Program-made: the position numbers and the translations under genes
NCBI RefSeq assembly: GCF_018350175.1
Contig: NC_058368.1
Location: 88,414,001 to 88,478,000 of the forward strand
Length of the DNA: 64,000 nt
Source: Felis catus
Lineage: Eukaryota
Direction: 5' to 3'
The notes under the pieces: generated by a model
Database searches by the model: none
What the model was told of the DNA's origin: nothing
Seen by the model: the letters and a program-made list of their open reading frames with translations, nothing else
Part shown: in pieces, positions 13,679 through 61,169 of the stretch
How the letters are laid out: each line of letters begins with the position of its first letter
Position numbering within the stretch: position 1 is the stretch's first letter

Positions 13679-14520
13679 CATAGGGTTCAGGTTCAGCTCC
13701 GGTTAGATTCCAGTTCAGGTTTAAGGGCTCAGGTTTGCTTTGGGGTTCAAGATTCAGGTCTGGAGGTAGGTTTGGGTTTAAGGGTCGGGTTCAGGTTGTG
13801 TCTGGTATAGAGTTAGAGCTCAGGTTAGGGTCAGTGTTTGGGTTCAAGGTTAGGGTTTGGGTTTGAGTTTGGTAATGGGTTAAGGTTTAGGGTTAGTGTT
13901 AGTGTTCAGGTTAGGGTTCGGGTTCACGTATGGGTTTATGTTAAGGTTGGGGGTTCTGGTGTGGGTTAAGGATCAGGTTAGGGTTCAGGTTTGGATTCTG
14001 GTTAGGGATCAGATTCGGGTTGGGCACAGGTTCAGGATCAGTTTTGGGGTTGGGTTGGAGTATGGGTTCACGTTCAGGTTAGCTTTAGTGTTTGGACTGA
14101 GGTTCAAATTGGGCCAGGTTCAGGTTGGTGTTTGGATTAAGGTTTGGAATTTAAGGTTCAGATCTGGGTTAAGGAGTGGCTTTAAAATTACGGTTCAGGT
14201 TCACCTTGAGGATTGGGTTTGAATTTGGGATTGGATTGAGTTTGGTTTTGGGTTAGTGTTAGGTTTTGAGTTAGGATTACAATATGGGTTCTGGTTCAGG
14301 ATCAGGAATGGTTTCGGGTTAGGGTTTGGGCTCAGGTTCGGGCTCTGGTTCTGGTTTGGGTTAGGGCCAGTGTGAAAGTATGTGCCCATTATCCGGTAGT
14401 TCAGTAACCTCTCTAGAGAGAGAAGTTTAGGGCTAAGGTTATGGTTAGGGTCATGGTTAGGTTTATGGCTCTGAGGCTAGGGGTTTGGTACCAGGCTTAG
14501 GGTTTGGTTTAGAATGAAGT
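13679..14520 (+). repeat. Degenerate telomere-like hexamer array (GGGTTA/GGGTTT/AGGTTC)
   Basis: ~840 nt of 6-bp period with scattered perfect ttaggg units; G/T-rich + strand. Confidence 0.85.
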
Positions 14521-19890: not shown

Positions 19891-20439
19891 ACCTATCAAC
19901 ATTGGTACATAACAGATCATTTTTGGAAGGAATAAAATTAAATGAGAAACAATATTTAGCAGAAAAGCCTCCAAACCCACCAAACCAGTGAGTCTGCAGG
20001 ACATCTAAACCTCACTGTGATGTGGGGGGACATGCACCAGCAATTTGCTCGTGTCCATGTGGTTTCGTGTATGCACAGTCCTACTCCTGTTTATTCATTT
20101 ACTAGTGGATGGGCACTGGGTGGTTTCCATGTTTGTGATGGTTGTAAATAAATGCCTTCAACAGTGGATAGTATGAGTTTAGAAAAAAATGGATGTTTAT
20201 TATTTTCTGAAAAAAGTAAACTATGCTTGTACAACACATAGAAATTAGAATGAAGGATAGAGAAGCAGTATTTCTTAAGAGTCCCACCACTCAGTTTTAA
20301 CCCTCAGGGTATTTTGCTGTGTTTCTTCCCAAACTGTGTCATGTGTGTGTATGTAGGTATTTATATACATAAAATTATGAAAATTGGGAAAGCGATGCAA
20401 ATGTAATTTTGGTTCTTGTCTTTTATAATGAACATGAGT

Positions 20440-21040
20440 GTCTTAGTGTGGGTTTTCCAGGGAAGCATAACATTATTACAAGGGATTGGCTCACAAAGTT
20501 ATGGAGGCTGGGAGCCCCCTGACCTGCGGCTGGCCTGCTGAGAACCTGGGAGCTGGTGATGTGTGTTGTGTGCATGTATGTATGTGTGTGCGTGGTGTGT
20601 GTGTTTTTGTGTGTGTGTGTGTGTGGTATGATTCTGTATGTGTGTGTACCTGCATGTGTGTGGTGTGCATGTGTGTATGTGGTATGTATGTGTGTGTGTA
20701 TACCTGTGTGTGTACTATAAGGAATTGGCTCACATAGTTATGGAGGCTGGGAACCCCCTGACCTACACCCAGACCCGTTGCAGACCTGGGAGCTGGTGGT
20801 TGGGGTCAGAGCCCGAGCCGGGAGGTCTGAGAGCACAAGCACAGCAGGTGCACATTCTGGTCCAGGGGCAGAGAAGACCAGGTCCCGCTCAGCAGCCAGG
20901 CAGAGAGGGGGTTACTCCCCTTTCTGCTGTATTCAGGCCTCAGTGCACTGGACAAGGCCCACCCTCACTGACAAGGGCAGGTTCTGGTGTGAACCTCACC
21001 CAGAAGCACCTTACAGTCTCACCCAGAATGCTGTTTGGCA
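20440..21040. mobile_element. ERVL (MLT2-like) LTR with internal (GT)n and a duplicated segment
   Basis: attggctcaca...gttatggaggctggg...ccccctgacct occurs twice (~20485 and ~20724), on either side of a GT-rich microsatellite. Confidence 0.65.
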
Positions 21041-22089
21041 CACAGAGAGATTGACTTCAGGACAAACCATTTACACAGATAGCGATGTGGAAGGTATTCC
21101 ATTGCTAATCTTCCTTCTCAAAGACAGGGATTTTGTTTGTAAACTTCAGACCCAGAACATTGACTGTTCTGCCAACATGAGATAATTATCTGTCTTCCCT
21201 GAAGCAGAATGCTGTTTCTCTGGAGCCCCACCTAGCCATGTGCCTATGCTGGACGCCATGTGCATAGTGAAGCTAGAGACCCCCAGAGGAGACCGCCAGG
21301 AGCCTCTCATGGATGCACAGGACCAGAGGCAGGGCAGTGTGGCACTGTGTCCAGAAGGGGCTGGTGGGGCCTGTCCAGAGAAACCTCCCGGCCTCCCTCC
21401 CCTCTGCTGTGGTGCAGGGGGCAGGGCTCTTGCAGAGCATGGGACGACGGCATGCAGCATGAGAGAGGGAAGCTAGTTCTGAAAGCCTCAGTCTCCTCCC
21501 TGTGCCTTCACAGTGGGAGAATGAACATTCACTCAGTGTTGTGCCCACTGGGAAGAAACATCACCACGGAGAGCCCCTTCCACTTCTGCACAGGGCACAC
21601 ACTGTCTGTTGTTCCTCTGTTTCTCAAGGGTGTCCAGGCCTCTGGAGAATCCCTCAGGACTGCACTGTGGGATCACCTTGCTAAGCTCAGAGTCCTCAGG
21701 CAGTGGCACCTGCCCTTCCACACATGCTGTGCTGCCCTTGATACTTGAGCCCTGCATGCTGTCCACATCCAGGAAGTTTGAGAATTATGCTAAGACCAGG
21801 TTGGGGAGGGGAGCAGCACCACCATGCCATTTGGCCTGGGCCCTGGAGACACCCCCTTACCCTGCCTCATCATCGGCATGTTCTGTGGGATGTTGGTGTA
21901 GGGGGAATTCTGGCTCAGGGTGACACATCCCAGGACAGTAGAGAGCAGGGTCTGGCTTAGGCTGGGGGCCTCACCATGATTCCAGGCAATGCAAAACCTT
22001 GCCCAAGGGGCTGCATGAACCCCTCAATCTTCTCCCCATGGGGACAGGAGGCATTTATTTGTGCACCCCCTCTGCCCTCAGTGAGTGGT

Positions 22090-22355
22090 GAGCCCAAGAT
22101 CAAGATGCCCACAGATCAGGTGTTTGTGAGAGCATGTTTCCTGGTTCACAGACAGCACCTGTTTGCCATGTCCTCACTTGGTGGAGGGGTGAGCGAGCTT
22201 TGTGGGGTCTTTTGTAAGGGCCCCACTCCCATCCATGGAGGATCCATCCTCCTGAACTAACCACCTCCCACAGGCCCCACCTCCTAACACCATCATCTTG
22301 GGTGCTGGGGTTCTAACACGAGCTTGGGGGGCACATGACCATCCAGACCATAGAG
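22090..22355. mobile_element. MaLR LTR fragment
   Basis: ccaagatcaagatgcc...tcctggttcacagac...aggccccacctcctaacaccatcatcttggg...atccagaccatag. Confidence 0.7.
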
Positions 22356-22841
22356 GTATTACATCTCCAGCCTCATTGCCAGCTGTCTCCTGAAGGGGTC
22401 TCCACCTTTCATAGACACTGCCTTTGGAAGTCCCAGATGACCCTGTCCTCTGTTCCCTGCAGTCATGTCTTTAAAGCCACAACCTTCCTCGTAGCCTCTC
22501 TGTTGGTGGTCAAGCTGCTGCACTGGTATATATTTCAGGTACAGTGTAGGCCAGGTGATCATCTGAACACTGAGGGCTGGCAGGTATGCTGCGATAAGGC
22601 ATGCTTATCCCCATGACTGTCTGATGGAGCCACTGTGTGTCATTTGCTCTGGGCCCTTCCAGGTGTGGGTCTCCTGCTTTGACTTGAGCTCTGGACCCCA
22701 CAATCAGGAAAGGCTAATGTGACAGAGTGAGACTGGGCATGTTAATGTTTGCACCCCTGGATTCAGGTAATGGGCTCCTCTGTCTCATCCCCTCTGCTTC
22801 TCACTGTGCCATTCAAATTTATTCAAAGAACTTTGTGATTC

Positions 22842-23137
22842 TGTTGGAGAAGTGAATAAAGTACGCCAAAGATGGCCGACAGGGCTAAAACAGACTCTGG
22901 TCTCTAGCTGAGACCCCTCCTCCGGGTTCTTCTTCCTTTGTTTGCTGTGCATGCAAAAACCTCCACAGATATGGAAGCTGAAGGCTATAAATTACCCTTC
23001 CCTCTTGCATAAAGTGCTCAGATCTTTGGAGAAACGGTCTCCTCTAAGCCCATCAGTGTTAAATAAATCTCCAATCCACCAAGATCTCCAAGTGCCGCTT
23101 GGTTTTTCCGCCAGCGTTCCAGCCTGTTTCCGTAACA
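22842..23137 (+). mobile_element. Solo LTR of the same ERV1 family as the provirus at 29562
   Basis: TG...CA ends, TATA (ggctataaat), aataaa; about 88% identical to 29562-29859 by manual count; no PBS downstream. Confidence 0.9.
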
Positions 23138-23699
23138 TATCCAGCATACTGATGTGGTCGATGAGCCTGTGTGGTCCATGACCTCTGGAATAGGTTGCCC
23201 AGGAATGCACCTGGAGGGGATGAAGTGGTGTCTTCACCACCTCCTTCAGCTGCAGCTCCTCCCAGTGCTCCAGAGGTGGAAGGAGAATTCCTGCCTGACT
23301 TCGAGGGACTGTGCAATTATGGAGGCAACTGGCCCCAGCAAATAAACCCTGTGTTCTCCTTCTGTGAGTCAGACACAAGGTCTGGACTGGCCCAGAAACA
23401 ACTGTTCCTCAGGGTCATCAACCTCAGGAGATTAAATATCACCTGGGTTGTAGGGCTGTAGCCTCTGTAAGATCAAACATTTTGGGTAAGAAGAGTTAGA
23501 CACAGTCAATTGCTCACATATGTGCATGTGACCATGTGACATGTGCGTGGACAACCCAGACATCCAGGAGGCCCTAAGTAGTCACATGATGTCCACGTGA
23601 TGGCATGACTTTGCATGCAGGTGCAGCCCTCAGGCACCACCTCCTGACTGCTTGCTCTCTTCTCTGCTGTGTTCTAAAAAGTGAAGCTGCAGGATGCCT

Positions 23700-24740
23700 G
23701 GAACATAGACCATGAAAGATAGGAGGTGGTTGCTCTTGCAGGAGAGGCATGCTGGCAGCAGTGACATGAACAAGAGATGTGGAAACTGTGAGCAGCAGAT
23801 CCAAGAAATGAAAAAGCCAGTAGATGGGGCAGGCATGTCAGGGCTGCTTCTTTGGGAACATCATTGCTTTATGGTTAAATGAACCATGGCCTGGTCTTGC
23901 AGACATGTGTGCCAAAGCCCCAGTGGGACCTGGGATCACCCAGGCATGTCTACCATGTGGTCGTCAGCCATAACTCAAGCTTGTATCCTTTTCATCTTCT
24001 GAGAATCAAGGGTATCAGTGGTCCTTACAAAGTACATCCTATGTCTTCACAAGTTTGCAAACATCACAGTTTGCAAAAGGATGACACTGGGGACCTGGAT
24101 TCCTGATGCAGTACTTTCTGACTTCAAGGTGTCTATTCATTGGCAACCTGGTGAATTTTGTAAATAGGATCCATGTTTGTTAATTCAATTGCATCAAAGT
24201 TAAGAAGATCAAATAAGGTCCTTTCATAATACATTAATTGACATCAAATCCATGAGCTACTTCTGAAAATCTCAGTTGACCAAGAAGGTTTTTCCAGAAA
24301 ATGAGCCCTGACTCATGGAGCAGCAACTCAAAGATTTGTCTTGTAAATGAGACCCTCCTGTAAGCTCCCCTCCCATGGCTTGTGTCAGGTCTCCTGCTGT
24401 TGCCAAGTGGGGATCAGGCCCAGGGTTGGCCTCCTGCCCATGATATTGTACTCAGCCTCAGCACAAGTGGATGGACAGCTGACATGGAGGCTGGAGCCAG
24501 GAACTAACAGACTCTGATTCCAGATGTAATTTATGAGGGGATCCAGTATGCAAAGCAGAGCCACCAGGTACACAGGGCTGGCGTAGAGAGATGTCCATAG
24601 TTTTGGAACAACCCCTGGACATCCTGATCCCACCTCCTCCTGCCACCAGCAGATACTGAGAAATTCCATTACCAGGTCAGTGAGGGACATCAGCCCAGGG
24701 ACGTGGAGGGCAGCAAGTTGTCCCCAGCTATGACTGCTCC
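23700..24740 (-). pseudogene. Possible highly decayed intronless PTK6/SRMS-like (SH3-SH2-tyrosine kinase) relic
   Basis: Collinear minus-strand peptides across frames: GAVIA..LPS, LDPLINYIWNQSL, EGLIYKTNL*VA, MKG/TLFDLL..HQVANE, HLEVRKY, CKL..LVK..DV..DH, LSYG*RP, MPAP. Judged by eye against a recalled PTK6 sequence; several deletions must be assumed. Confidence 0.4.
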
Positions 24741-26379
24741 CCACTGTGCACCTATCCATGGCAGCATCAAAACATCTTTGGCCTCAACCACTGTTTCAGG
24801 AAAATGCTTGAAAAGTCAATCTCAGCATTTATTTCCAAGGTTCCAAGCCACATCTGAGGAAGGAAAGATCAGCAACAATGCAAAGAGAGCCTCTCAGCCC
24901 AGCCCTGCTCACCAGCCCTGAGGTCCAGGGGTCCAAGGGTCCAGAGGGAAGGACTCATAGGGTTGAGTAAGACAGTCTCCTCAGCATTGACTCCATAAGG
25001 ATGTCACTTTCTTGGCTTATCCTTGTGCAGCCTGCAGATATCCAACAGAATATGTGGGATTTCTGGAAACTTGGGGGCTATAGTGGGTGGTGGGGGCATT
25101 CTAGGCCCATGTTTTTGAGGAAAGATGCCACATGGTTAAGACCCCAGGCCTGGGTGCTCTGGGGATGGGCCGGCTGTAGATGTGTTCAGAGGTCATGGCA
25201 ATGCTCAGGGCTGTGTGGTCAGTGGTGGGCTTGGGGTCAGTGGGCCCCCTGCAATGCCCTTCCTGCACAGAGTGGGGCTTTTCTGTCTCTGTAACCCCAG
25301 TGACTGGCTGGGGTGCCAAGGTAGGCACTTAGAAGATGTTAAAAATAGAATATTAGAACTAGTCCAGCCCACTACGCTGCTCCCGCCTACCCACGCCGCT
25401 CTGGTATCTCCCTTGATGCCTGCTTGGCACGACGTATCTGGAGGACCAGTGCCTGGGCAAAAGCCATGCCCATCAGTGGTGAATAAGAATTACTTGAATT
25501 CCTGATGTGTTAAGTAACTTGTCTGATCCCAGTGTGAAGGCTGAAGAGACAGTTGCTGGGGTTGGGGGGTCAGAGTGAGTAGGGGAAGAGATTGGATTCA
25601 ATGGCTGGAATCCCCCAAGACTCTGATACTTGGAGGGGCCCAGAGATGGTGTTCGTGGGTAAGGCATGCACCTTCCCTCCCAGTGCATTTTATCCCTCTC
25701 TGCCCCACCTCTCAGAAGTCTTCATGGGAGGGCCCCCTTGTAGGTATCCTCTGATGTGTCTGATGACCAAAGTATCACCTGGATCACATACTTGGGCAAA
25801 GGGTTCCCAATCAGGATTCTGACCCTAAACCATGAGATGCATGTGCAAACTTGGAACACCCCTCTTCAGGACATCATCCTCAGTTGGGACTCAGAGAAGG
25901 AGCCCCCCAGCATGGAAGTGGGTGCTTGGTCCTCGTGCCCTCAGAACAGGGCCTTTCTCATGTGTGAGGGAGGCATTTGGTGTGCTGTTGTCCATCACTT
26001 CCCCACTGTATGGTCCTTGCCTCTTCCCACAGGATCCCTTGCAGGAAAAGCTTCTTAGGGTTCATCTCTTTCAATTTCCCTCTTCCTTCCCTCATTGAGG
26101 AAAGTTCTGAAGCACATTGTCTTGTTCCTTTGTAAAACCATTGTTTCAGAGTTGGAAACATCACCAGGAGACAGCTGAGCCCAGAGTTGTCTTTGCTGAT
26201 ACTTAATAAGCGGAGCTTAGGAGGAAATCAGAACCACTGCAGGTCCCACCAATGTCCCCACTGGGAATTAATCCCATCAGGACACCAGGCCTCATTAACT
26301 TCAGGGCATCCCTGCCCTCCGTACTGGTGCTCCTCCTTCCTCTTAGCTGTTGTGGGTTTTTAGTTAGTTGTTGTGCAGT

Positions 26380-27797
26380 GTGTAAGATAGGGGTCTGGTG
26401 TTACGCTTGGGGCTGTCCAGTTTTCCCAGCACCATTAATTGAAGAGACTGTCTTTTCACCATTGCGTATTATTGGCTCCTTTGTTGCGAATTAATTGTCC
26501 ATGTATGTGTGGATTTGCTTCTGGGCTCTCCATTCTGTTCCATTGGTCTTTCTATCTCTTGGCCCATATCATACTGTTGGTTACTGTAGCTTTGTAATAT
26601 AGTTTCAAATCAGGGAATGTGATGCCTCCTGGTTTGTTCTTCTTATACAGGCACTTTGGCTATTCATGGTCCTCTGTGGTTTCATACACGTTTTAGGATT
26701 TTTCTAGTTCTGTGCAAAATGGTACTAGAATGTTGATCAGGAGGGATTACATTGCATCTGTACATCACTTTGGGTAAAATGACAATTCCATAATATTCAT
26801 TTTTATAATCCAGGAACACATAATATCTTTCCATTTCTTCATCAATGTCTTATTTCCATGATACAAGTTTTTCATGTCTGTAGTAAAATTTTTTTCTAAT
26901 TGTTTTCATAACTTCTTTTGATGGTTCATTATGAGCTTGTCAAATGTAATGATTTTTGTATCTTGAATTTGTATCCTACAATTTCACTGAGTTTATTTGT
27001 TTTAACTTTTTTTTGTATTTGTGTGGAGTGAGTGGTGAAAGATGGGAACTCAAAATGGCATGTTTCTACCATATCCTAGGTCATCCACAACATCCACAGC
27101 AGAGTGGCCACTAATATAATTCTACCACAGTGTCCTTTAGTAATATGTTGCATCTTGTGAACTGTGTCCAGGTAGGGTTTGGCCTCCATCATAAGGTTTG
27201 ATATGTTCTGCACTTTTCTGGTATGTTACTAATATAGTTGTTCTGAGAAGTCATGTAGTTTCCATAAATTTCCAACATATAGAAAACCTGCAATAGCAGT
27301 AGAAATACTCTTTATCTCTGCACTCAGCTTCACCAGCTGTCATTTTACACAGTTGCCACTTCTTATGACATACTTCTTTGTTTTTTACTCAAAACAGGAC
27401 ACCTTCCCCAGGAATTGTTATAGAACTCCCAAACAGGGAAATCATTATGGTTTCCTCATGATAATCTAATCCAGAGGCCACTTCAACTGTAATCACCTGC
27501 CTGAACTCTGTGACAATGACTCCTCCTGTTGTGACCCACTTTTCTGTTCTTGAGACTTTCACTCACTTCACAACCATGATTGATTTAAAGATCACAGAGG
27601 GCTCCAATCTGGGCAGCCTTTTCTGTGTGGCTTCTGTAATTTAGTATTTTCAATCTTTGTTCATGTTGTGATATGTTTTAGTACTTTAGTCATGATTTTA
27701 ATTGTGGTTCAATTTACAAAATATAATAGTGACCATTTAAAAGATTTTTAAAAAGTTTTTAAAAAATGTTTATGTACTTTTGAGAGGGAGAAGGAGA

Positions 27798-27833
<36 letters not shown>

Positions 27834-28400
27834 ATCTGAAGCAGACTCCAGGCTTTGAGCTGTCGGCACAGAGCCCAACGCAGGGCTCGAATCTACAAAC
27901 TGTGAGATCATGACCCAAGTTGAAGTTGGACCCTTAACTGACTGAGCTACTCAGGCAACCCTAAAAGATTTTAAGTCTACAGTTGTATGCCACTAAATAT
28001 ATTACCATTGTGCACAAATCACCACCTTCCACCTTGAGAATGTTTAAATTTTGACCAAGTGAAAGTCTGTGTATATTAAACATTAACTCCCCATTCCCAT
28101 TTCTCCTCTGCCTGTCAACCATATGTTACTTTTTGTAGGTGAATTTGATTATTATGGATACCCCAAACAAGTAGAATCTTATAATATTCTTTTCTGTGAT
28201 TAGATTATTACCCTTAAGATTTTGAGGAACTCCCACTCAGTTTTCCTCAGTAGCTGCTCAAATTTATTTCATTTGTTGATATATTGGAAGAACATTTCTG
28301 TGTATGGATCTACCCCATGTTGTATATTCTTTTACCCTTTGTGGCATGTTTGCATATTTTGTACCATTTTCCAATTGTGAATAGTATTGCTATGAATATT
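26380..28400 (-). mobile_element. Antisense L1 fragments, with a Can-SINE at ~27760-27962
   Basis: tccagttttcccagcaccatt...gaagagactgtc and gtagctttgtaatatagtttc are reverse ORF2 motifs; older 3' UTR-like pieces follow. Confidence 0.75.
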
Positions 28401-28404
28401 TATG

Positions 28405-29320
28405 TTGGCTTTAGTTATGATTACGGTTCTGGTTCATGATGTGTGGATCATGGTGTATGATTTATAGATTATGGTTTTAGGATTCTATTATTTAATGGTG
28501 TATGGTTTTGGGTTGATGGCATATGGCTTTTTGGTCACACACCCTTATGATTTAGGTGTTTTGTGTGAGGAGGTGGGAAGAAGAATGTTATTGGGTTTGA
28601 GATGAAATATTTCTTGTGGGTGAGTGGATGAGGGGGTAAGCTGGTGGATGTTTGTGGGGGGAGGGCTTAGGAGGTTTAGTGGGTGGTGTGTGGGGGAGCT
28701 AGTGGGTTCAGAATTTGGAAGCGATGGTTTAAGGGTGAGTGAGTGAAGGTCTGAGAGGGTAATTGTTTAAGTGGTAAGGGGGTGACAGTATTGGCTGTGG
28801 GTTTAGAAGGTTTTGGGAATAGGGGCGCCTGGGTGGCGCAGTCAGTTAAGCGTCCGACTTCAGCCAGGTCACGATCTCGCGGTCCGTGAGTTCGAGCCCC
28901 GCGTCGGGCTCTGGGCTGATGGCTCAGAGCCTGGAGCCTGTTTCCGATTCTGTGTCTCCCCCTCTCTCTGCCCCTCCCCCGTTCATGCTCTGTTTCTCTC
29001 TGTCCGAAAAATAAATAGACATTGAAAAAAAATTTTTAGAAGGTTTTGGGAATGAATGCTTATTAGTTGAGAGATTAGAGAGATCAGGTGGTAATGGTTT
29101 AGGGCATGAGGGTTTAGGAAATGAGGATAGGAGTAGGGTGGGCCTTGAGTCATTGGAGATAATGGTTAATGTGTTTAGGCTGGAGAAGTGGAAGATGCAA
29201 GGAGAACCCGGTTGTCCAGAGGACTCATTAGGGACAGCACTAGACTGATTAACTGGAATTTGTGGGTTCCAACCTAGAGGTAGAAGACCCTGAGAGAGTT
29301 AGGGTTTAGGATCAGGGTAC
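28405..29320 (+). repeat. G/T-skewed degenerate low-complexity tract, partly hexameric
   Basis: tatggt/ttaggg/gggttt-like units with very few C on the + strand; ends gagttagggtttagg. Confidence 0.6.
28822..29035 (+). mobile_element. Young felid Can-SINE
   Basis: ggggcgcctgggtggcgcagtcagttaagcgtccgac with CpGs intact; perfect TSD agaaggttttgggaat. Confidence 0.95.
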
Positions 29321-29477
29321 ATTCTGAATTCAGATATGTGGTTTGCAAATATTTTCTCCCAGTTTGTGGCTTGTCTTTGGTTTTGTGAACAAGGTTTATC
29401 AAGGGTAGAAGTTTTATTTTATAAAGTCGATGTTATCAATTTTTCTCTTTTCTGGATTGGTCTTTTTGTCTGTGTTT

Positions 29478-29561
29478 TATTTTTTAAATGTTTATTTATT
29501 TTGAGAGATAGGCACTGTCTACACAGAGCCCATGTAGGGCCGATCTCACCAATCATGAGAT
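29478..29561 (-). mobile_element. Partial Can-SINE interrupted by the ERV 5' LTR
   Basis: tttaaatgtttatttattttgagaga...cacagagccc...catgagat stops at the LTR, where the consensus would continue catgacctgagc. Confidence 0.8.
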
Positions 29562-29859
29562 TCTTGGAGAAGTAAATAAAGTATGCCAAAGATGGCTGAC
29601 AGGGCTAAAACAGACTCTGGTCTCTATCTTAGAGACCTTTCCTCTGGTTTCTTCTTCCTTTGTTTGCTGTGCCTATGAAAACCCCCACAGATATGGAGGC
29701 TGTAGGCTATAAATTACCCTCCCCACTTGCATTCCGGGCTCAGACCTTTGGAGAAACAGTCTCCTCTGAGCCCACCTGTGTTAAATAAATCTCCAATCCA
29801 CCAAGATCTCTGAGTGCTGCCTGGTTTTTCTGCCAGCATTCCAGCCTAGTTCTGTAACA
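29562..29859 (+). mobile_element. ERV 5' LTR
   Basis: Homologous to 22842-23137; TATA and poly-A signal; ends taaCA; PBS follows. Confidence 0.92.
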
Positions 29860-29863
29860 TACT

Positions 29864-29881
29864 TGGTTCCATGACCGGGAA
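29864..29881 (+). promoter_or_regulatory. Primer-binding site, tRNA-Glu
   Basis: TGGTTCCATGACCGGGAA matches TGGTTCCCTGACCGGGAA (complement of the tRNA-Glu 3' end, as recalled) at 17/18. Confidence 0.85.
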
Positions 29882-30221
29882 ACCCAACCGCGCTGGTCTA
29901 GTGTTGCCACCAGTTTGGGAGAACAGCGAGGTGGTGACGTGGTGACGGAGGAGCGAGGGATCGCAAGGGAGAAGGCACGCCCTGCCTGAATTTTGGGAGT
30001 CACCTTCTCAGTTGCCTCAGGCCGGCCCGCTCCTTTGTTCCCACCGGACTCAAAGAAACCTGGTAGGTGAAGACCTGGACCCAATGTTGGAACCAGTAAG
30101 GCCAGGGCCCCAAAGAAGTCAGGCCCACCCAAAAGGGTGGAAGGGGGACCTGATCAATCCCCAGAGGCCTTAACAGTTCTCACAGGTAGAGAATTTTGCA
30201 GGAGAGAATGTAATAGACTCT

Positions 30222-32155: not shown

Positions 32156-35100
32156 GGGGGACCGGGCTCTTTCTCTCTTGGCCTCCACAAGCCCATGGTC
32201 AAAATGAAGGTAGGGGGGCAGAACAATAACTTTCATAGTTGACACTGGGGCTGAATACTCCATTGTTACTTCCCCAGTGGCGCCCTTCAGCCAAAAGACT
32301 GAAACCATACTTGGGGCTACTGGGACACAGGTGATGCAGCAGCCCTTCTGTCAAGCTCGACAATGTTCTCAAAAGAGAACAAGGTCCAGAATGAGTTCCT
32401 TTACTTACCTGACTGCCCGATTCCTCTCCTGGGCTGGGATCTGATCTCTAAACTTGGGGCCCAGACAACTTTTGATCCCACTGGACACACTAGCCTCCAA
32501 TTATACCCAAGGCAGAAATAAACCCTGGTCTTGGCGATTACCCTGCCAAGGGAAGAAAAATGGAGACTATTCTGTGCCCAAGCCCTACCCTGTAGCCCCT
32601 CAGAATTCAGGCTTACATTCCCCTCTGTATGGGCTGAAGATAACCCACTTGGACTAGCTTGGAGTTGGGGCCCCACCATTGTTGACCTGATCCCTGGAGC
32701 CCAACCTCAGAGACAAAGGCAGTACCCCCTTCCACTCGAGGCTACAATGGGTATACAAGAGCACCTGACCAAGCTGAGAAGTAGGTATTCTAATTGAGTG
32801 CCATTTGGCTTGGAATACCCCACTCTTGCCAGTCAAGAAGCCAGGAGGAGAATACCTACCAGTACAGGATTTGAGGGACATTAACAAAGTGACTGTTTCC
32901 TTACACCCAGTGGTTCTGAACCTGTATACTCTCCTCAGGCAAATTCCGGGGTCAGCCAGATGGTTTACATGCCTTGACCTAAAGGACACTTTCTTCTGCC
33001 TCCACCTGGCTCCTCAAAGTCAACCATTGTGTGCCTTTGAATGGACTGAGCCCGTTACAGGGTGCCAGATGAAGCTGACCTGGACACGACTTCCCCAAGG
33101 TTTCAAGAACTTGCCCACTTTTTGGGGGAAGTGCTAGCTGCAGACCTCGCTGACTTTCCGAGGGAAACCACAGGGTGTGTCCTCCTCCAATATGTAAATG
33201 ACCTCTTCCTTGCCAGCGACACCCAAGAAGACTGTATGAAAGGTACCAAGGTCCTCCTGCAGCTCCTGTCCTATTCAGGGTACCGGGCCTCTTGGAAGAA
33301 GGCACAGGTTTGCCAGCAGCAGGTCCGATATTTAGGCTTCCTCCTCACAAAAGGAAAAAGAGAACTAGGACCGGAAAAGAAGAAAGTTATCACCACACTG
33401 CCACAACCCCAAACAAAATGAGGCTTTCATGAATTTTTAGGGGTCACAAGGTTCTGTCGCATTTGGATTCCTGGATTCTCAACCATAGTGAGACCCCTCT
33501 ATGACCTGTTGGGAGGGCAAGACCAGGAGCCCCTTGCATGGACTGAGGAGGCAAGGGCCGCTTTCACAGAAATAAAGTCAGCTCTGGGACGAGCCCCAGT
33601 CCTGGGTTTGCCTGACATAGAAAGGCCCTTTAACCTCTTTGTACATGAAAAGGACAAAATAGCCCTTGGAGTGCTCACTCAGAGCATGGGGTCTTGGCAA
33701 TGGACAGTGGCCTACCTGTCAAAAAAACTTGATCCTGTGGCTGCAGGATGGCCACCATGCCTCAGAGCACTGGCAGCCACAGTCCTGCTCATCAAGGAGG
33801 CAAACTCATACTGGTACAAACATTTAATGTTAAGGTCTCACAAGCGGTCATGTCCCTCATAAGCACCCCAGGATATCATTTCCTCTCCAATTCTCAGCTG
33901 ACACAATATCAAGGCCTTCTCTACGAAAACACAAGGGTCACTCTTGAAACAGTAAGAACACTAAACCCGGCCACCTTCCTTTCCAAGGAGGAGGGATAAC
34001 CTGACCATGACAGTTCCAAAGTAGTGGATGACGTCTACACCAGCCACCCGGGCCTCCAAGACCAGCTTATAACAATCCCAGAGATCACCCCGTTCAGCAG
34101 TGGGAGCAACTATTTACAAGAAGGCAGCCAAAGAGCAGGATATGCGGTAACCACCGAAATTCTGGAAGCCAAGGCCTTGCCGGAAGGATGGTTGGCACTA
34201 TGGGCTGAACTGCACGCCTTAAACCGAGCCCGCATCCTTAGCAAAGGTAAACAAGTCAACATCTACACTGATTCCTGGTATGCCTTCGCTACTGTGCATG
34301 TACACGGGACCATCTATAAAGAAAGAGGCCTCCTTACTGCTGCAGGGAAAACTATCAAAAACAAGGAAGAAATACTAAAGCTTCTTGAGGCCGTATGGCT
34401 GCCAGACAAAGTAGCTATCCTACACTTTAAGGGACATCAGAAAAAAGACAACCCCATAACTCAAGGAAATCGCCTGGCTGACAAAACAGCCAGAGCAGCC
34501 ACCTGTGGTGACCCAGGTGAAGCTCCTACCTATGACTCTTGCACCCCAGAGGGAAGCCTCCCTGCCCCAATGAAGAAAGAAGTTGGGCCTCAACAGAAGG
34601 GGACACAGTAAGCAAAGAGGAATGGGGGGTCATGCCAAATGGGCACATCTTTGTCCCGACATCTATGGGAAAACACCTAGTGAAGGAATATCACCAACTC
34701 ACACACCTAGGGAAAACTGCACTGGAGGCCCTCCTCAAAAAGGACTACTATATCAGCCAGCTGCCGGCATTATGCCAAGCTGTCAGTGAGCAATGTGTAA
34801 CGTGTGCCAAAAACAATGCTTGGTCTGCCCCATGGCCCCTGCCTGGCACGCAAAGGATGGGGGGCCACCCCTTTTGAAGACTTAGAGGTGGACTTTACTG
34901 ACATACAACCAAATAAAAGGTTCAGGTACCTTTTTGTAATAATCTGCACACATTGGGGGTGGGGTGAAGCATTCCCAACCAGAACGGAATGAAGTCGCAA
35001 GGTGGCTAAAGCCCTTCTATGGGAGATTGTGCCTTGATTTGGTCTACCCGTAACCATACACAGTGATAACGGAACTGCATTTGTGGCAGATGTTATACAA

Positions 35101-35730
35101 ACCCTGACAACGTCCCTCAACACTACCTGGAAACTGCACACTGCTTACCGACCCCAGAGCTCAGGGAAAGTAGAGCGGATGAATCGCACCCTCAAGGAAA
35201 CCCTGGCTAAGTTCCACCAAGAGACTAATCTCCCATGGCCAGATTTACTACTGCTGGCCCTCCTTCATGCCCAATGCATGCCTGGGGCACTGGGTTTCTC
35301 CCCTTTTTAGTTATTATATGGGCAACCGCCTCCCCCCATGTTTAGGAAAACTCCCAGGAGAGCTACACTAGATTGGAGACAAGGGAATAAGAGAACAGCT
35401 CCAGACCTTGGGGGCAGTCCTAAATAAGTTACAGAGATACACCATAGAGAGGGCCCCAATTTCCTTAGGGACCCCCATTCACCCCTTTCAGCCAGGAGAC
35501 TCTGTGTGGGTCAAAGATAGGAAGAGGGAACCTTAGACCACGGTGGACTGGGCCACATACTGTTTGTTATTCTAACAACTCCTGCAGCCCTTAAAGTTTC
35601 AGGTATCACCCCATGGGTCCATCAACCAGAGTTAAGAAGGCCCACTCAGAAGAACCCACAAAGTGGTGAAGTGATCCAGATCCAGTCAACCCACTTAAAC
35701 TGACCCTCAAAAGGGAACCTGGCCCTTGAG
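32156..35730 (+). pseudogene. pol: Gamma-like ERV pro-pol (PR, RT, RNase H, IN), disrupted
   Basis: VDTGAEYS, WNTPLLPVKKP, LPQGFKN, YVND (catalytic YVDD altered), NIYTDS, HQLTH...CVTC, EVDFT/SDNG/VERMNRTLK; many frameshifts and stops. Confidence 0.95.
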
Positions 35731-36199
35731 AACTCCAGCTCTGCTCCAACCACACCCTGGAAGCTCGTATCTGAGTCACATGGCTTTTCTGGTAATACAA
35801 GGATTTAGATGTTAGGCCTCCATGGTGGAGGCAGGCAAGGGAGAAAGGGGTTTAGACCAGCTGAACGTCGGAGTTTTCTACACAGGCCTACCTGCCCAGA
35901 TCTCCCAGAGACAATGGTCAGAGATTTATAAAACTGATGGACATGTTACTGGGTAGAATAAGGAGTGGGAGGGATGGAAACAGGGTTCTTTCTTGAGCCT
36001 GATTGCACATAAAATACGAATAGATTTCCTTGCTCCCTTTGCCCTCACGCACACTTTGCAGATTAGTCTTGAGTCAAGCACCTTCTCAGGAGCCCATGAA
36101 ATTTGTTCCTCATCCCTGGCGGAGCACCACCACCTCCTAGAGGAGCCTCACTTTTAATCCTTACAACATCATACAAGGTCTTTTCTCCTCTCTTTCTCA

Positions 36200-37240
36200 C
36201 CCATCCTTACCTGAATCTGTGGCCTTGCCACCTTCATATCCAGTCACTTGTCAGGTCCTGTGAGTCCTACCACTGAAGTCTCTCAACCCCTCCCCTCTCT
36301 CTACATAACTCTCAGGGAGGCTTGTGTAGACTCTTCTCTCAACCTGTTTGTAGATTCTACATGAATAGTGCACAGGACTCATTTGAATATTCATATATAT
36401 GCCTTAGCAAGACTCAATGTAAGTAATTCCATAGTCTTTAATGTCTCTTTCTCATGTATTCCTCGTGTAAAACTGAGATGACATTCCGAATGCCTTGTGT
36501 TCTCCTACAATGTTTCTAGTGTCTTTTAAGACCCTTGTCCTATGTCTCTTGCTTCCAAATTCTCCCTGGTCCACAAAAGTCCAGAAATAGTGTTATAAAT
36601 CCCAAAGCTGTTCAAGGCCCCATTTCTCTTCCCTAACATCTTTAATTAACAAATTCTCCACAATTAGGTCCCAACCTAACTCACACCACCCTTCCCCCAG
36701 GACTATGTTTCCTACTGTCTGTGATGCTGTGTCCCCCAACATGGATCCTTCTTTCAGTCCTCACACACATCCTACCCTCCATCTGCCATTGTTCATGCTA
36801 TTCCTGCTGCCTGGGATGTCCTTTCTCACTCTTGACAGTGATAGACTCCTATATATCCTTCATTGCCCATAAATCTTCCCTCAACTCCCTTGGGCAGAGT
36901 TTATTGATGTAAATTCTTTGTAATAGTACATATCTCATAGCACCTGTTCTTAGGATTAAGGGAGTTAACACTGCAAAATACTCAGGTACATGCCTGGCAT
37001 GACACTGAGCAAACACACCATTAACGGCAATGTTATCATTTTTGTTATCACCTTTGTCTGCTGACTGTTGCTGTGATTATAAACATGCATCTGCCTCCTT
37101 CATAAGATGACAGCTCCTTGGGGCAGGGGCCATATTTTATTCCTTTACTGTCTTTCTCTCACTCTGTCCCTCCCACTTACCTCTTCAAGCCTATCATGGT
37201 GCCTAGGGATTAACAGTTTTCCTATAAATATCTGTTAGCC
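36200..37240. mobile_element. Ancient L2/MIR fragments
   Basis: MIR-like aatagtac...ctcatag...aggattaa...gttaa...tgcctggcat (~36920-37030); L2-like ctccttggggcagggg and ttcctgctgcctgggatgtcctt. Confidence 0.55.
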
Positions 37241-37449
37241 ACATCCCAGTTTCCTTTATGTTATTGGTCTTGTTCCTCCCAAAGCCTAGAGCAGGAAGCC
37301 AGTATGTATAGTTAGTAGTCTGTGATTATTTTGTTATTAATCATCATTGCAACTAAGGCTTTACAATTATTAGCACCTTCTAGCTGCTCTTGTACCATTG
37401 TGTTGGCATAAATTTTAAATATTGTTCCTTTTCTATACCAACTACATTT

Positions 37450-40400
37450 TAAGTTTTTATTTAAGTTTCATTTATTTAACATACAGGGTAAAATATACTC
37501 AAGGGTACAACATAGTGATTCAATACTTACATATAGCCAATCTCTTTCCCCACCTCCCTTGGGGTAAGTATTAGTTTGTTCTCTATAGTTAACGAGACTG
37601 TTTTTTAGTTTGTCTCTCCTTTATTTTCTCCCTGTGATCCTTTGTTTTGTTTCTTAAATAACACATATGACTGAAATCATATGGTATTTTACTTTCTCTG
37701 ACTGACTTACTTCTCTTAGCATATGCTCTCTAGCTTCATACACATTATTGCATATAACAAGTTTTATTCTTTTTGATGCCTGAGTTATATTCCATTGTGC
37801 ATAAAACAGCATCTTCTTTATCCATTCATCAGTTAAAGGATATTTGGGCTCGTTCCACAATTGGGCTATTGTTGATAATGGTGCTTTAAACATCTGGTAA
37901 ATGTTTCCCATCAAATCAGTATTGTTGTATCCTTTGGATAAATGTCTAGTATAGCAATCACTGGATTATAGGGTAACTCCTTTTTTGACTTTTTGAGGAA
38001 GCTTCATACTTTGTTCTTGAGTGCTTGTGCCCATTTGCATTCCTCCCAACACTGTAAGCGGGTTCCACTTTTTCCACATCCTTGTCAATACCTGTTGTTT
38101 CCAGTGTTGTTAATTTTAGCTATTGTGATTGTTGTAAGGTACCATCTTATTGTAGTTTTGATTTGTATTTCCCTGATGACGAGTGAGTTCAGCATGTTTT
38201 CATGTGTCTTTTAGCCATTTGGATGACTTCTTTAGAAGAATGTCTATTCATGTCTTCTGCCCATTAAAAATTTTTAAAAATGTTTATTCATTTTTGAAAG
38301 ACAGAGAGAGAGCACAAGCAGGGGTGGGGTGGAGAGAGACGGGGACACAGAATCCGAAGCAGGCTCCAGCTTCTGAGCTGTCAGCACAGAACCAGCCGTG
38401 GGGCTTGAACTCATGAACTACGGGACCATAACCTGAGCCGAAGTTGGACGCTCAATCAACTGAGCCACCCAGACGCCCCTTTTCTGCCCAGTTTTTAACT
38501 GGATTATTTGTTTTCTGGGGTGTTGAGATTAATAAGTTTTTTTATATGTTTAGGATAATAACCCTTTACTAAATATGTTATTTGCAAATATTTCTCCTGT
38601 TTCATAGGTTGCCTTTTAATTTCTTTGTTTCCTTCACTGTGCATAAGTTTTTCTTTTGATGAAGTCCCAGTAGTTTATTTTTGCTTTTATTTCCCATACC
38701 TCAGGAGTCATGTCTAGTAAAAGTTGCTATGGCTGATGTCAAAAAGATTACTTCCTGTGTTCTCTTCTCTAATTTAAAATTTTTTAAATGTTTATTTTTG
38801 AGAGAGTGAAAGAGAAGTTGAGTGGGGGAGGTGCATTTTAACTTTGTAACATTTAGACATTTTAACAATATTTGGTCTTGCAGTCCATGAGCATGGTATG
38901 TTTTTCCATTTGTTTTTGTCATCTTAAATCTCTCTCATATGTATTGTATAATTTTCTGAATACAGATATTTTATCAATGTGGTTAGTTTTATTCCTAGGT
39001 ATCTTATGGTTTTGCATTTTTAACAATGGGATTGATTCCTTGATTTCTCTTTCTGGTGCTTCATTATTGATGTACAGACATACAATAGATCTGTACATTG
39101 ATTTTGTATCACACAAATTTACTGAATTTATATACCAGTTGTAGCAATTTTGGGGGAGGAGTCTTTCATGTTTTCTACATTATGGATCATATCAGCTGAA
39201 AATAGTGAAAGTTTCACTTCTTCCTTGTTGATTTGGAAGCCTTTTATTTTTTTGTGTTGTCTGCTGTGGCTAAGACTTCCAGTACTATGTTAAATAACAG
39301 TGATGAGAATGAGAGGACATCCCTCTCTGGTACCTGACCATAGAGGAAATTTCTAAGTTCTTCCCCTTTGAAAATATTATTAGGTATGGGTTTTATATAC
39401 ATGGGCTGTGTATGTCAAGGTATGTTTCCTCTATCCCTACTTTGTGGAGGCTTTTTAAATCATGAAGAGATGATGTACTTTGTCAAATCCTTTTTCTGCA
39501 TCTATTGAAATGATCATATGGGTTTTATACTTTCTTTTACTATTTTGGTGTATCATGTATGGATTTGTGAATATTTGAACCACCTTTGAATCCCAGGAAT
39601 AAATCCCACTTGATCGTGGTGAATTATTCATTTAATGTAAGGTTGGATTCTGATTGCTGGTAAGTCTTCTTTGGAAAAGTGTCTATTTATGTCTTCTGCC
39701 CATTTCCTCACTGTATTACTTATTTTTTAGGTGTTGAGTTTGGTAAGCTTTTTATAGATTTTGGATACTAACCCTTTATCTGATATGTCATTTGCAAATA
39801 GCTTCTCCCATTCAGTTGGTTGCCTTTTAGTTTTGATGATTGTTTCCTTTGGAGTGCAGAAGCTTTTATCTTGATTAGGTCCCAATAGTTCATTTTTGTT
39901 TTTGTTTCTCTTGCCTCCTAAGACATGTCAAGTAAGAAGTTCCGAAGACAAATAGAGTTGTTGCCTGTGTTCTCATTTTGGATTTTGATGGTTTTCTGTC
40001 TCATGTTTAGGTCTTTCATCCATTTTGAGTTTATTTTTGATTATGGTGTAAGAAAGAGGTCCAGTTTCATTCTTCTGCATCTTGCTATCCAGGTCTCCCA
40101 GAACCATTTTCTAAAGGGACTTCTTTTTTCCATTGGATATTGGGTCCAATTCTGGGTTCTCTATTCTATTCCTTTGGTCTAGGTGTCTGTTTTTGTGCCA
40201 ATAAGATACTGTCTTGATGATTACAGCTTTGGTAATAGAGGCTAAAGTACAGATTGTGATGCTTCCCGCTTTGGTTTTCTTTTTCAACATTACTTTGGCT
40301 ATACGGGATCTTTTGTGGTTCCATATAAATTTTGGGATTGTTTGTCCTAGCTTTGAGAATTACAGTGCAGTTTTGATTGGGATTGCAATGAATGTGTAGA

Positions 40401-47095: not shown

Positions 47096-48447
47096 TTTTT
47101 TTTCAATATATGAAATTTATTGTCAAATTGGTTTCCATACAACACCCAGTGCTCATCCCAAAAGGTGCCCTCCTCAATACCCATCACCCACCCTCCCCTC
47201 CCTCCCACCCCCCATCAACCCTCAGTTTGTTCTCAGTTTTTAAGAGTCTCTTATGCTTTGGCTTTCTCCCACTCTAACCTCTTTTTTTTTTCCTTCCCCT
47301 CCTCCATGGGTTTCTGTTAAGTTTCTCAGGATCCACGTAAGAGTGAAAACATGGTATCTGTCTTTTTCTGTATGGCTTATTTCACTTAGCATCACACTCT
47401 CCAGTTCCATCCACATTGCTACAAAGGGCCATATTTCGTTCTTTCTCATTGCCACGTAGTACTCCATTGTGTATATAAACCACAATTTCTTTATCCATTC
47501 ATCAGTTGATGGACATTTAGCCTCTTTCCATAATTTTGCTATTGTTGAGAGTGCTGCTATAAACATTGGGGTACAAGTGCCCCTATGTATCAATACTCCT
47601 GTATCCCTTGGGTAAATTCCTAGCAGTGCTATTGCTGGGTCATAGGGTAGGTCTATTTTTAATTTTCTGAGGAACCTCCACACTGCTTTCCAGAGCGGCT
47701 GCACCAATTTGCATTCCCACCAACAATGCAAGAGGGTTCCTGTTTCTCCACATCCTCGCCAGCATCTATAGTCTCCTGATTTGTTCATTTTGGCCACTCT
47801 GACTGGCGTGAAGTGATATCTGAGTGTGGTTTTGATTTGTATTTCCCTGATGAGGAGCGACGTTGAGCATCTTTTCATGTGCCTGTTGGCCATCCGGATG
47901 TCTTCTTTAGAGAACTGTCTATTCATGTTTTCTGCCCATTTCTTCACTGGGTTATTTGTTTCTCGGGTGTGGAGTTTGATGAGATCTTTATAGATTTTGG
48001 ATACTAGCCCTTTGTCCGATATGTCATTTGCAAATATCTTTTCCCATTCCGTTGGTTGCCTTTTAGTTTTGTTGGTTGTTTCCTTTGCTGTGCAGAAGCT
48101 TTTTATCTTCATAAGGTCCCAGCAATTCATTTTTGCTTTTAATTCCCTTGCCTTTGGGGATGTATCAAGTAAGAGATTGCTATGGCTGAGGTCAGAGAGG
48201 TCTTTTCCTGTATTCTCCTCTAGGGTTTTGATGGTTTCCTGTCTCACATTCAGGTCCTTTATCCATTTTGAGTTTATTTTTGTGAATGGTGTGAGAAAGT
48301 GGTCTAGTTTCAACCTTCTGCATGTTGCTGTCCAGTTCTCCCAGCACCATTTGTTAAAGAGACTGTCTTTTTTCCATTGGATGTTCTTTCCTGCTTTGTC
48401 AAAGATTAGTTGGCCATACGTTTGTGGGTCTAGTCCTGGGGTTTCTA
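47096..48447 (-). mobile_element. Young 5'-truncated felid L1
   Basis: Uninterrupted 357-codon ORF2 C-terminal frame (47240-48313, [20 protein letters not shown]), 3' UTR, poly-T at ~47096; no TSD seen. Confidence 0.95.
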
Positions 48448-48493
48448 CAAATTCTGGAGATTAAGTTATTTGGATATAGTTGGATATGGTTGG

Positions 48494-60069: not shown

Positions 60070-60982
60070 TTATAACTTGATTGTAATTTTCCCACACTTT
60101 TGAAACACATTTTTTATTATTTTATTAGAACTTGTTAGCACCAATGCACTGACAGTGGCATAGACATTGGCACAAGCTTCTGGACATCCAGAATGAACGT
60201 GTCCTGTGCCCATAACAGAGTGGAGGAGAAGGAGATAATGACGCCCACCTAGTACATGACCACAAAGAAACTCGCCAATAGCAGGATGGTTTGGGTGGCC
60301 CTTCTCTAGGGGGAGACTCTTGAGGAGAGGTGATGGCACTGCCTCTGATGACTGCACAAGAGAATCATAATGTATGCACTTGAGAGCAGCATGCCTCCAA
60401 CAAACAACCATCCCTGGATATTGAAAAAGTGAAAACCGGTTCCCTGATGATGGAGTTTAGGTGAGAAAGTGAGAAGTATTTACTGACACACAGTAGACTG
60501 CTCTGGGTCACTTTAGAAGGAGCAGCAGTATACAAGATGCAGTTACTAATGAGAGACAAACTGAGAAACCATAAGATGATAAAAGAATGGAAGATGTACT
60601 TTTTGCATGTATGTTTAAAGCTGGCCAACCAGGAGGTGCTAGGGCTGATGATGATGGCCTTGAACATGCCGAGGCGGCAGGTGGTGCTCAAGGAGAGACC
60701 CCGTGTCTCCCTGATCATGCAGAATAAAGCCTTGAATTTGAAATCACTTAGAATGTTCAGTACTTCAAATATGTCTGTAGACATTAAAAACAGTGCAGGG
60801 AAGAGTTTTATTATGTGGACAAGAGCCAAGGGATAGATGGTCATTTCAGAAGGCTTAGGCCTGTAATCCAGAAGGAGCATGAAGATGTGGAAGAGAAGCA
60901 GGAAGGTGTTGGCAAAAATTACAATACTAACGTGTAAAATTTGGCCTATCTTAATAGTAATATAAATGGAATATGTCATCAT
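60070..60982 (-). pseudogene. Vomeronasal type-1 receptor (V1R/VN1R family) pseudogene
   Basis: ANTFLLLFHI, RPKP, RGLSLSTTC, AIIISPSTSWLASFK, then third-frame MLLSSAY..HQRQ..SP*RRATQTILLL..VVMY*V, then NVYATVSALVL. Two frameshifts (~60410, ~60170), stops at 60306-60308 and 60249-60251. Confidence 0.93.
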
Positions 60983-61169
60983 CACAGTGGCCAAAAAAAT
61001 AGATCCTTTTGTGTATCTGAAAAAAATTACACTTTACATCATCAATGTGATTCATTTTCTTGTCAAAATCATCACCACAATTTTTATTTTACTCGTTTAA
61101 TCAGTAAACCTATGTTGTATAAAATCTTAGAAATACAGTCTCAACATTATTTGTACACCAATTTTACTA

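Follow-up and report, generated by a model that had tools for sequence, protein, structure and literature searches.

A faint tyrosine-kinase likeness in non-coding mammalian DNA, possibly a very old retrocopied C-lobe fragment

Some 460 bases of non-coding DNA (24240-23780, minus strand) bear a faint likeness to the latter half of a tyrosine kinase of the Src/Brk type. They lie in the stretch of 64 kb that was analysed, called the window below. From the sequence comparisons we favour, at a probability of roughly 0.45, the reading that they derive from the C-lobe half of a Src/Frk/Brk-type kinase, as an intronless copy that is dead and of great age. That reading stands narrowly ahead of chance likeness; both estimates are judgement, the tests being many and partly post hoc and the family having been picked in advance. 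The stretch encodes no protein, and nothing seen suggests a function for it. Whether a dead kinase copy or chance, the outcome is an ordinary one.

Setting and the motif chain

The window is mammalian DNA populated by SINE and L1 copies. The composition around the flagged stretch is that of an AT-richer patch (38% GC, CpG = 0) embedded in DNA of 50% GC. The interval 23546-26356 has no self-match within the 64-kb window, and Rfam finds nothing in 20000-30000, so that "apparently unique DNA", the wording of the first-pass annotation, holds within the window only. The neighbouring features are as follows.

22834-23139, plus strand: partial-LTR candidate, 306 bases with 87-88% identity to 29556-29861, the start of the retrovirus
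29556 to ~35100, plus strand: broken gamma-type endogenous retrovirus, with Pfam Gag_p30, RVT_1 and RNase H pieces in separate frames
60365-61033, minus strand: V1R-like open reading frame, 222 aa from stop to stop, Pfam E 2.4e-30, model positions 2-186 of 292

The 306-base retrovirus-like piece, about 560 bases from the flagged stretch, is perhaps a solo or partial LTR; no match to a 3' terminal repeat of the retrovirus was found within 34500-38500. The idea that the flagged stretch itself is a tandem array or a portion of the neighbouring retrovirus was rejected for want of any significant DNA self-match. The V1R-like frame is probably a truncated vomeronasal receptor gene, judged by its Pfam alignment. 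A degenerate GGGTTA-like tandem array, like an old interstitial telomeric repeat, occupies 13700-14470. A short stretch at 25480-25530 (minus strand) we take to be MIR-core-like, and a 406-aa open frame at 47240-48460 (minus strand), presumably the C-terminus of L1 ORF2, is without a Pfam match.

The first-pass annotation had read the minus strand across frames as a chain of PTK6-like motifs. All of the strings it quoted are present, in the order it gave and with coordinates off by a few bases at most.

From 24740, minus strand: GAVIAG
24546-24508, minus strand: LDPLINYIWNQSL
From 24384, minus strand: HKPWEG
24357, minus strand: EGL
24276-24268, minus strand: TEI
24227, minus strand: MKG
24219-24136, minus strand: TLFDLL..QVANE
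From 24131, minus strand: HLEVRKY
24059, minus strand: CKL
23978, minus strand: LSYG
23836, minus strand: MPAP

It was right, too, that no long open reading frame covers these motifs; all six frames carry stops. Six RNA runs contain a fraction of 0.07-0.50 of the sequence words, which does not count as evidence of expression. Standard tools are silent on a kinase here. Pfam, which the annotation had proposed as a check, finds no kinase, SH2 or SH3 domain in 18 pieces of the window. Seven PDB searches with window pieces return zero kinases at E<=10, plasmid tblastn with single-frame read-throughs finds no kinase, and two short stop-free pieces give nothing, or clusters without names, in the ESM Atlas. 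When tyrosine-kinase ORFs from 123 loci are used as tblastn queries, the best E in the region is 0.25, on the wrong strand.

Frameshift-aware alignment to PTK6, the other check that had been proposed, comes out at noise level against control tiles under strict BLOSUM62 scoring. For 120 PTK6 proteins, mostly from tetrapods, the region has a mean score of 36.6, and the median of 52 control tiles is 37.5; with macaque PTK6, 109 of the 147 tiles equal or exceed it. Very cheap gaps recover the annotated chain, and macaque and opossum PTK6 then score above all 147 tiles. Measured against shuffled proteins with lenient gaps, PTK6 of macaque, horse and opossum has z of 2.6-4.2 and that of cat 1.2-2.2; no coelacanth or fish z exceeds 1.2. 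The 2.6 of macaque PTK6 is matched by the top-ranking tile among 148 controls (z 2.72).

Such figures speak for the main rival reading, that the likeness arose by chance in old, neutrally evolving DNA or in an ancient repeat not recognised as such. We hold this to be a serious contender, with a probability close to that of the kinase copy. The route to chance would be that an AT-richer patch gives protein-like frames, and that picking motifs over three frames with free gaps chains many families. By eye, chains can also be drawn on this same DNA for piggyBac transposase, ZAK, MYLK4, TSSK1 and MMP-8, of which at most one family can be correct. What speaks against chance is the behaviour of the C-lobe segment under a model of decay.

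The C-lobe signal

A codon-decay pair-HMM was used, which compares DNA with a protein profile while allowing for neutral decay through small indels and the loss of CpG; column-shuffled profiles and other window tiles served as controls, under several backgrounds. A fish PTK6 reference came from a motif scan, and its best single-domain PDB match is human PTK6; the other references were further PTK6 proteins of fish, a Galemys model in which SRMS and PTK6 are fused, the 120 best-hit PTK6 proteins (mostly tetrapod) and 150 distant kinases. Together these references yielded 572 kinase domains; no vertebrate FRK was identified among the proteins compared.

In early runs of the pair-HMM the region was not outstanding. 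In local mode the outcome varies with the choice of background: with real dinucleotide odds the region scores 17.3 bits and 48 of 60 tiles are higher, and with simulation-derived odds it scores 24.7 bits and none of 72 tiles is higher. By excess over column shuffles the region ranks first against 194 other tiles, with 7.2-8.6 bits for PTK6, 4.0-7.2 for other tyrosine kinases and 4.0-5.0 for TKL. The glocal score is reached by 0/300 shuffles for other tyrosine kinases, 0/300 for TKL and 3/300 for PTK6, compared with 54/300 for a mixed MMP profile and 158/300 for piggyBac, the two control families.

If only short indels are allowed, PTK6 columns 262-424 of an amniote profile stand 14.3-21.0 bits over shuffles, a score reached by 0/600 shuffles and 0/501 tiles under each of four backgrounds; this column range was picked post hoc, from about a dozen scoring set-ups. 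In the same test the score is reached by 2-13/600 shuffles for other tyrosine kinases and 8-20/200 for TKL, and by 74-163/200 for piggyBac and 115-140/200 for MMP. The stability of the excess over four backgrounds, its lack in the two control families and the response of kinase profiles other than PTK6 all weigh against chance. The aligned part has 30 identities in 151 codons, about 20-25%, and divides as follows.

24050..24242, minus strand: core, kinase helix D, helix E, catalytic loop and strand 8 (cat PTK6 262-328), by pair-HMM
23925..24049, minus strand: stretch of activation-loop length, by length fit
23893..23931, minus strand: R-S-H-W-G-F-G-T-H-V-C-K-T, like K-S-D-V-W-S-F-G-I-L-L-x-E-I, by single-sequence pair-HMM and other-TK alignment
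23779..23894, minus strand: helix G to helix H likeness (PTK6/SRMS), with P..G..NH.A, a stop, CP and L.LT

The core has 14 identities in 57 codons with few indels of 1-3 nt, and reads I-R-N at the position of the HRD motif. Its banded excess over column shuffles is 20.1-22.5 bits for PTK6, with 0/500 shuffles reaching the score under each of three backgrounds. A profile of 77 Src/Frk-like domains other than PTK6 gives 21.7-24.3 bits (0/400 shuffles), so that PTK6 is no more than a candidate parent. Among 17,664 block-by-tile tests that scanned the whole window and included the controls, the core comes first with 17.1 bits and the runner-up has 15.2; it is thus the best signal of the window, yet by a small margin, and these 2 bits or so among so many tests keep chance in play, as the first-pass annotation had itself allowed.

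Downstream of the core, the activation loop contributes nothing (excess -0.5 to 0.1 bits; 228-271/500 shuffles reach the score), and by eye a stop codon and VMADDH stand at 23977-23957 where W-x-A-P-E-A-L is expected. The W at 23922 then falls at most 2 nt from the diagonal of the core. QVA, the HRD arginine, CK and the W of W-G-F-G all have 25029-25031 as the sum of position and three times column, and hence helix D to helix F requires indels of 1-3 bases only. This placement on the predicted diagonal is a further point against chance, and it makes unneeded the deletion of the APE/DVWSFG segment that had been assumed. The columns around it are less striking: 14-25/500 shuffles reach the score for columns 366-402 and 43-65/500 for columns 345-402. 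The helix G to helix H segment is displaced about 18-20 nt from the upstream diagonal, has a stop where the GYR-equivalent region has its arginine, and shows 12 identities in 64 on an ungapped diagonal to Galemys PTK6; for columns 366-424 the shuffles reaching the score are 3, 3 and 33 of 500 under three backgrounds.

Outside the C-lobe, three further sites are of interest.

24215..24420, minus strand: N-lobe motifs of the first-pass annotation, no excess over shuffles
24440..24900, minus strand: SH3-end and SH2-end motifs, in bands picked by the first-pass annotation
25042..25275, minus strand: site B, a second, out-of-order likeness to the PTK6 C-lobe end (NH, CP, CW), by alignment scores

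The N-lobe part of the chain (HKPWEG, EGL, TEI) falls away, with an excess of -0.2 to -2.2 bits and 253-484/500 shuffles reaching the score. The SH2-end and SH3-end motifs are borderline, in bands that were themselves picked beforehand: 22-30/500 shuffles reach the score for SH2, and 12, 34 and 287/500 for SH3 under three backgrounds. Taken jointly, columns 45-261 are reached by 41-213/300. What survives of the proposed kinase identity is therefore the modest signal of 24240-23780, above its pair-HMM controls and invisible to standard tools.

Site B is the top match of the window for Galemys PTK6 (59) and for a eutherian profile (51.2), ranks 2 of 53 tiles by mean across 120 proteins, and in a banded test is reached by 0-2/300 shuffles, the site having been selected from the whole window. 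Its DNA has a weak likeness to 23819-23895 (HOXD70 1914, controls 1601 and 1067). Lying about 1 kb off, it is either a coincidence or a duplicated fragment. A minus-strand frame at 24439-24499, PSTCAEAEYNIM, is a recurring out-of-order match to the helix-H region of reptile and amphibian PTK6, and is also, we presume, FRK-like. The same PTK6 segment is thus resembled at three places within 1.4 kb, two of which (ending at 25042 and 24439) are out of order.

Parent gene, age and the other rivals

If the core descends from a kinase, a kinase mRNA would have been reverse-transcribed and inserted, presumably by a LINE enzyme. The copy would then have gone out of frame, and neutral decay through point changes, small indels and the loss of CpG would have taken it to roughly 0.6-0.7 substitutions/site. 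The collinear alignment contains no intron-sized gap. Two fish PTK6/SRMS-like loci in genomic DNA, L025 and L040, end abruptly after DFGLAR-x-IK, as at an intron, and the diagonal in the window, if the alignment is real, passes this point gap-free with a drift of at most 2 nt. On plain reading, neither a poly-A tail nor a target-site duplication was noticed, and survival of either is not expected at such divergence.

As to the parent, the mean C-lobe excess is highest for 45 eutherian-range PTK6 domains (11.0 bits), followed by 107 fish (8.1), 77 Src/Frk-like (6.3) and 31 TKL domains (0.3). To this extent the proposal of a PTK6-like parent finds support, against which stands the equal or better fit of the Src/Frk profile to the core. 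Among single domains on the C-lobe, the best Src/Frk scores 18.9 and the best Eph 17.1 bits. Past the DVW motif the Src/Frk profile is weaker (11, 20 and 125/400 shuffles). PTK6 would be the likeliest single parent by these comparisons, while being in itself unlikely.

Simulated fossils bear on the age. For opossum, platypus and alligator PTK6 the median C-lobe scores are 49-58 bits at d=0.45 (10th percentiles 22-28), 17-30 at 0.6 and 6-9 at 0.75. The C-lobe excess of the region, 18.7 bits, is within the d=0.6 medians, and a divergence of roughly 0.6-0.7 substitutions/site fits the simulations. A copy of placental or therian age has d up to about 0.45. At d<=0.45 no simulated local score is below 38 bits, and the region has 24.7; simulated scores usually being so far above that of the region, a retrocopy of PTK6 as recent as the placentals or therians is disfavoured. 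The age then required exceeds the usual survival of unselected DNA, which counts against the kinase-copy reading.

A weaker rival, which we consider improbable, is that the fossil stems from a different group of kinases, its generic kinase likeness leaking into the PTK6 profiles; candidates by eye are MYLK4, TSSK1/2, ZAK/MAP3K20 and FRK. The TSSK1/2 genes are naturally intronless. In simulation, more distant (TKL) parents about 33% identical to PTK6 give, at d near 0.35, cross-scores similarly weak to those seen (at d=0.35, other-TK median 6.7 and PTK6 3.1 bits). Compared by eye with the excerpted part of supplement 2 of Modi and Dunbrack 2019 (PMC6930252), MYLK4 matches helix D-E ungapped with 8 of ~27 identities, TSSK1B has FLEK, KYC and EGS in common, and ZAK shares 7 of 19 in one block. 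Against this, the alignments of ZAK and TSSK1, again by eye, demand many in-frame gaps, and ZAK in the same excerpt has YSYG for the W-x-F-G of the window. The low TKL average in the C-lobe test and the PDB searches free of kinases speak against another group as well. A true parent would be expected to exceed about 65 bits at d<=0.45 in simulated fossils; motif scans for ZAK, MYLK4 and TSSK1B gave no such gene.

Slightly less probable again is that the region is what remains of an intronless kinase gene of Src/Frk/Brk type, once working and now lost, that dates from early mammals or before, with a piece of its C-lobe duplicated at 25042-25275. If so, an intact copy might be found in marsupials, monotremes or reptiles. 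Such a paralogue was not recognised among the 120 best protein hits, which are PTK6-labelled or without name.

The least probable of the rivals retained is a decayed intronless MMP-8-like matrix metalloproteinase catalytic domain at about 24113-23765. It came up in an unbiased PDB search topped by MMP-8 (E 0.078) and then MMP-3 (E 1), the outcome of one of the 7 PDB searches. PLILRR and AAH-x-F can be seen by eye in neighbouring frames near their expected places, and the HExxHxxGxxH zinc motif is partial by eye, the protein L178 being the zinc motif reference. The glocal test with L178 is reached by 2/300 shuffles, and a viral-MMP profile has an excess of 2.0-5.6 bits. These are countered by the lack of a match to Pfam Peptidase_M10, by local scores of -1.3 to 2.2 bits for animal-like bacterial MMPs and a mixed profile, by the frequency with which shuffles reach the mixed profile (54/300 glocal and 115-140/200 with short indels, as above), and by the place of the region outside the top 8 of 3,396 tiles under hmmsearch --max. 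The reference L178 and a second protein, L211, are from prokaryote genomes and have a strikingly animal-like MMP architecture, with a PRCG cysteine-switch propeptide and Peptidase_M10 scores of 174-178 bits.

A piggyBac transposase (DDE_Tnp_1_7, PGBD core) was rejected, a 120-protein profile giving noise and 158/300 shuffles reaching the score. A complete piggyBac/PGBD-like transposase is encoded at L128:638-2482 (plus strand), on a contig assigned to an Aquifex MAG that is probably eukaryotic contamination.

Comparison with known kinases and protein fossils

If the reading as a dead kinase copy is true, the stretch would add modestly to the numerous known protein fossils, as one more kinase pseudogene of great age that is barely detectable, and germ-line retrocopying of BRK/Src-type mRNA would predate the therian radiation. 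Greater weight would attach to it only if orthologues showed a once-functional lost paralogue. A lesson for annotation is that cross-frame motif chains readily fit several unrelated families. Judged from titles and abstract openings, no pseudogene of PTK6, MAP3K20 or MMP8 is evident among the papers listed in literature searches.

A functional kinase gene has intact HRD, DFG and APE in an open frame, which is not the case here. Compared with the BRK/FRK family (PTK6, SRMS, FRK), helix D, QVA, LE..Y, CK, W.FG, NH and CP agree with PTK6 orthologues in spacing and partly in sequence; unlike those SH3-SH2-kinase proteins, the stretch has neither an open frame nor a recognisable HRD, DFG or VAIK lysine, and the N-lobe is unsupported. 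The Src family and invertebrate Src42A/FRK-like kinases, in the form of the 77-domain profile, match the core as well as PTK6 does, with a fit that drops after the DVW motif, where the NH pair of the window is PTK6/SRMS-like. The closest parallel as a class is with host-gene protein fossils and processed pseudogenes, described in the excerpted text of Frith 2022 (PMC9004415) as non-coding, with frameshifts and stops, aligning to a host protein and intron-depleted if derived from mRNA. The words "kinase" and "PTK6" do not occur in the excerpted main text of that paper, which counts 27,240 human protein fossils, 4,303 of them previously unannotated, and in which those derived from host genes are a large known class.
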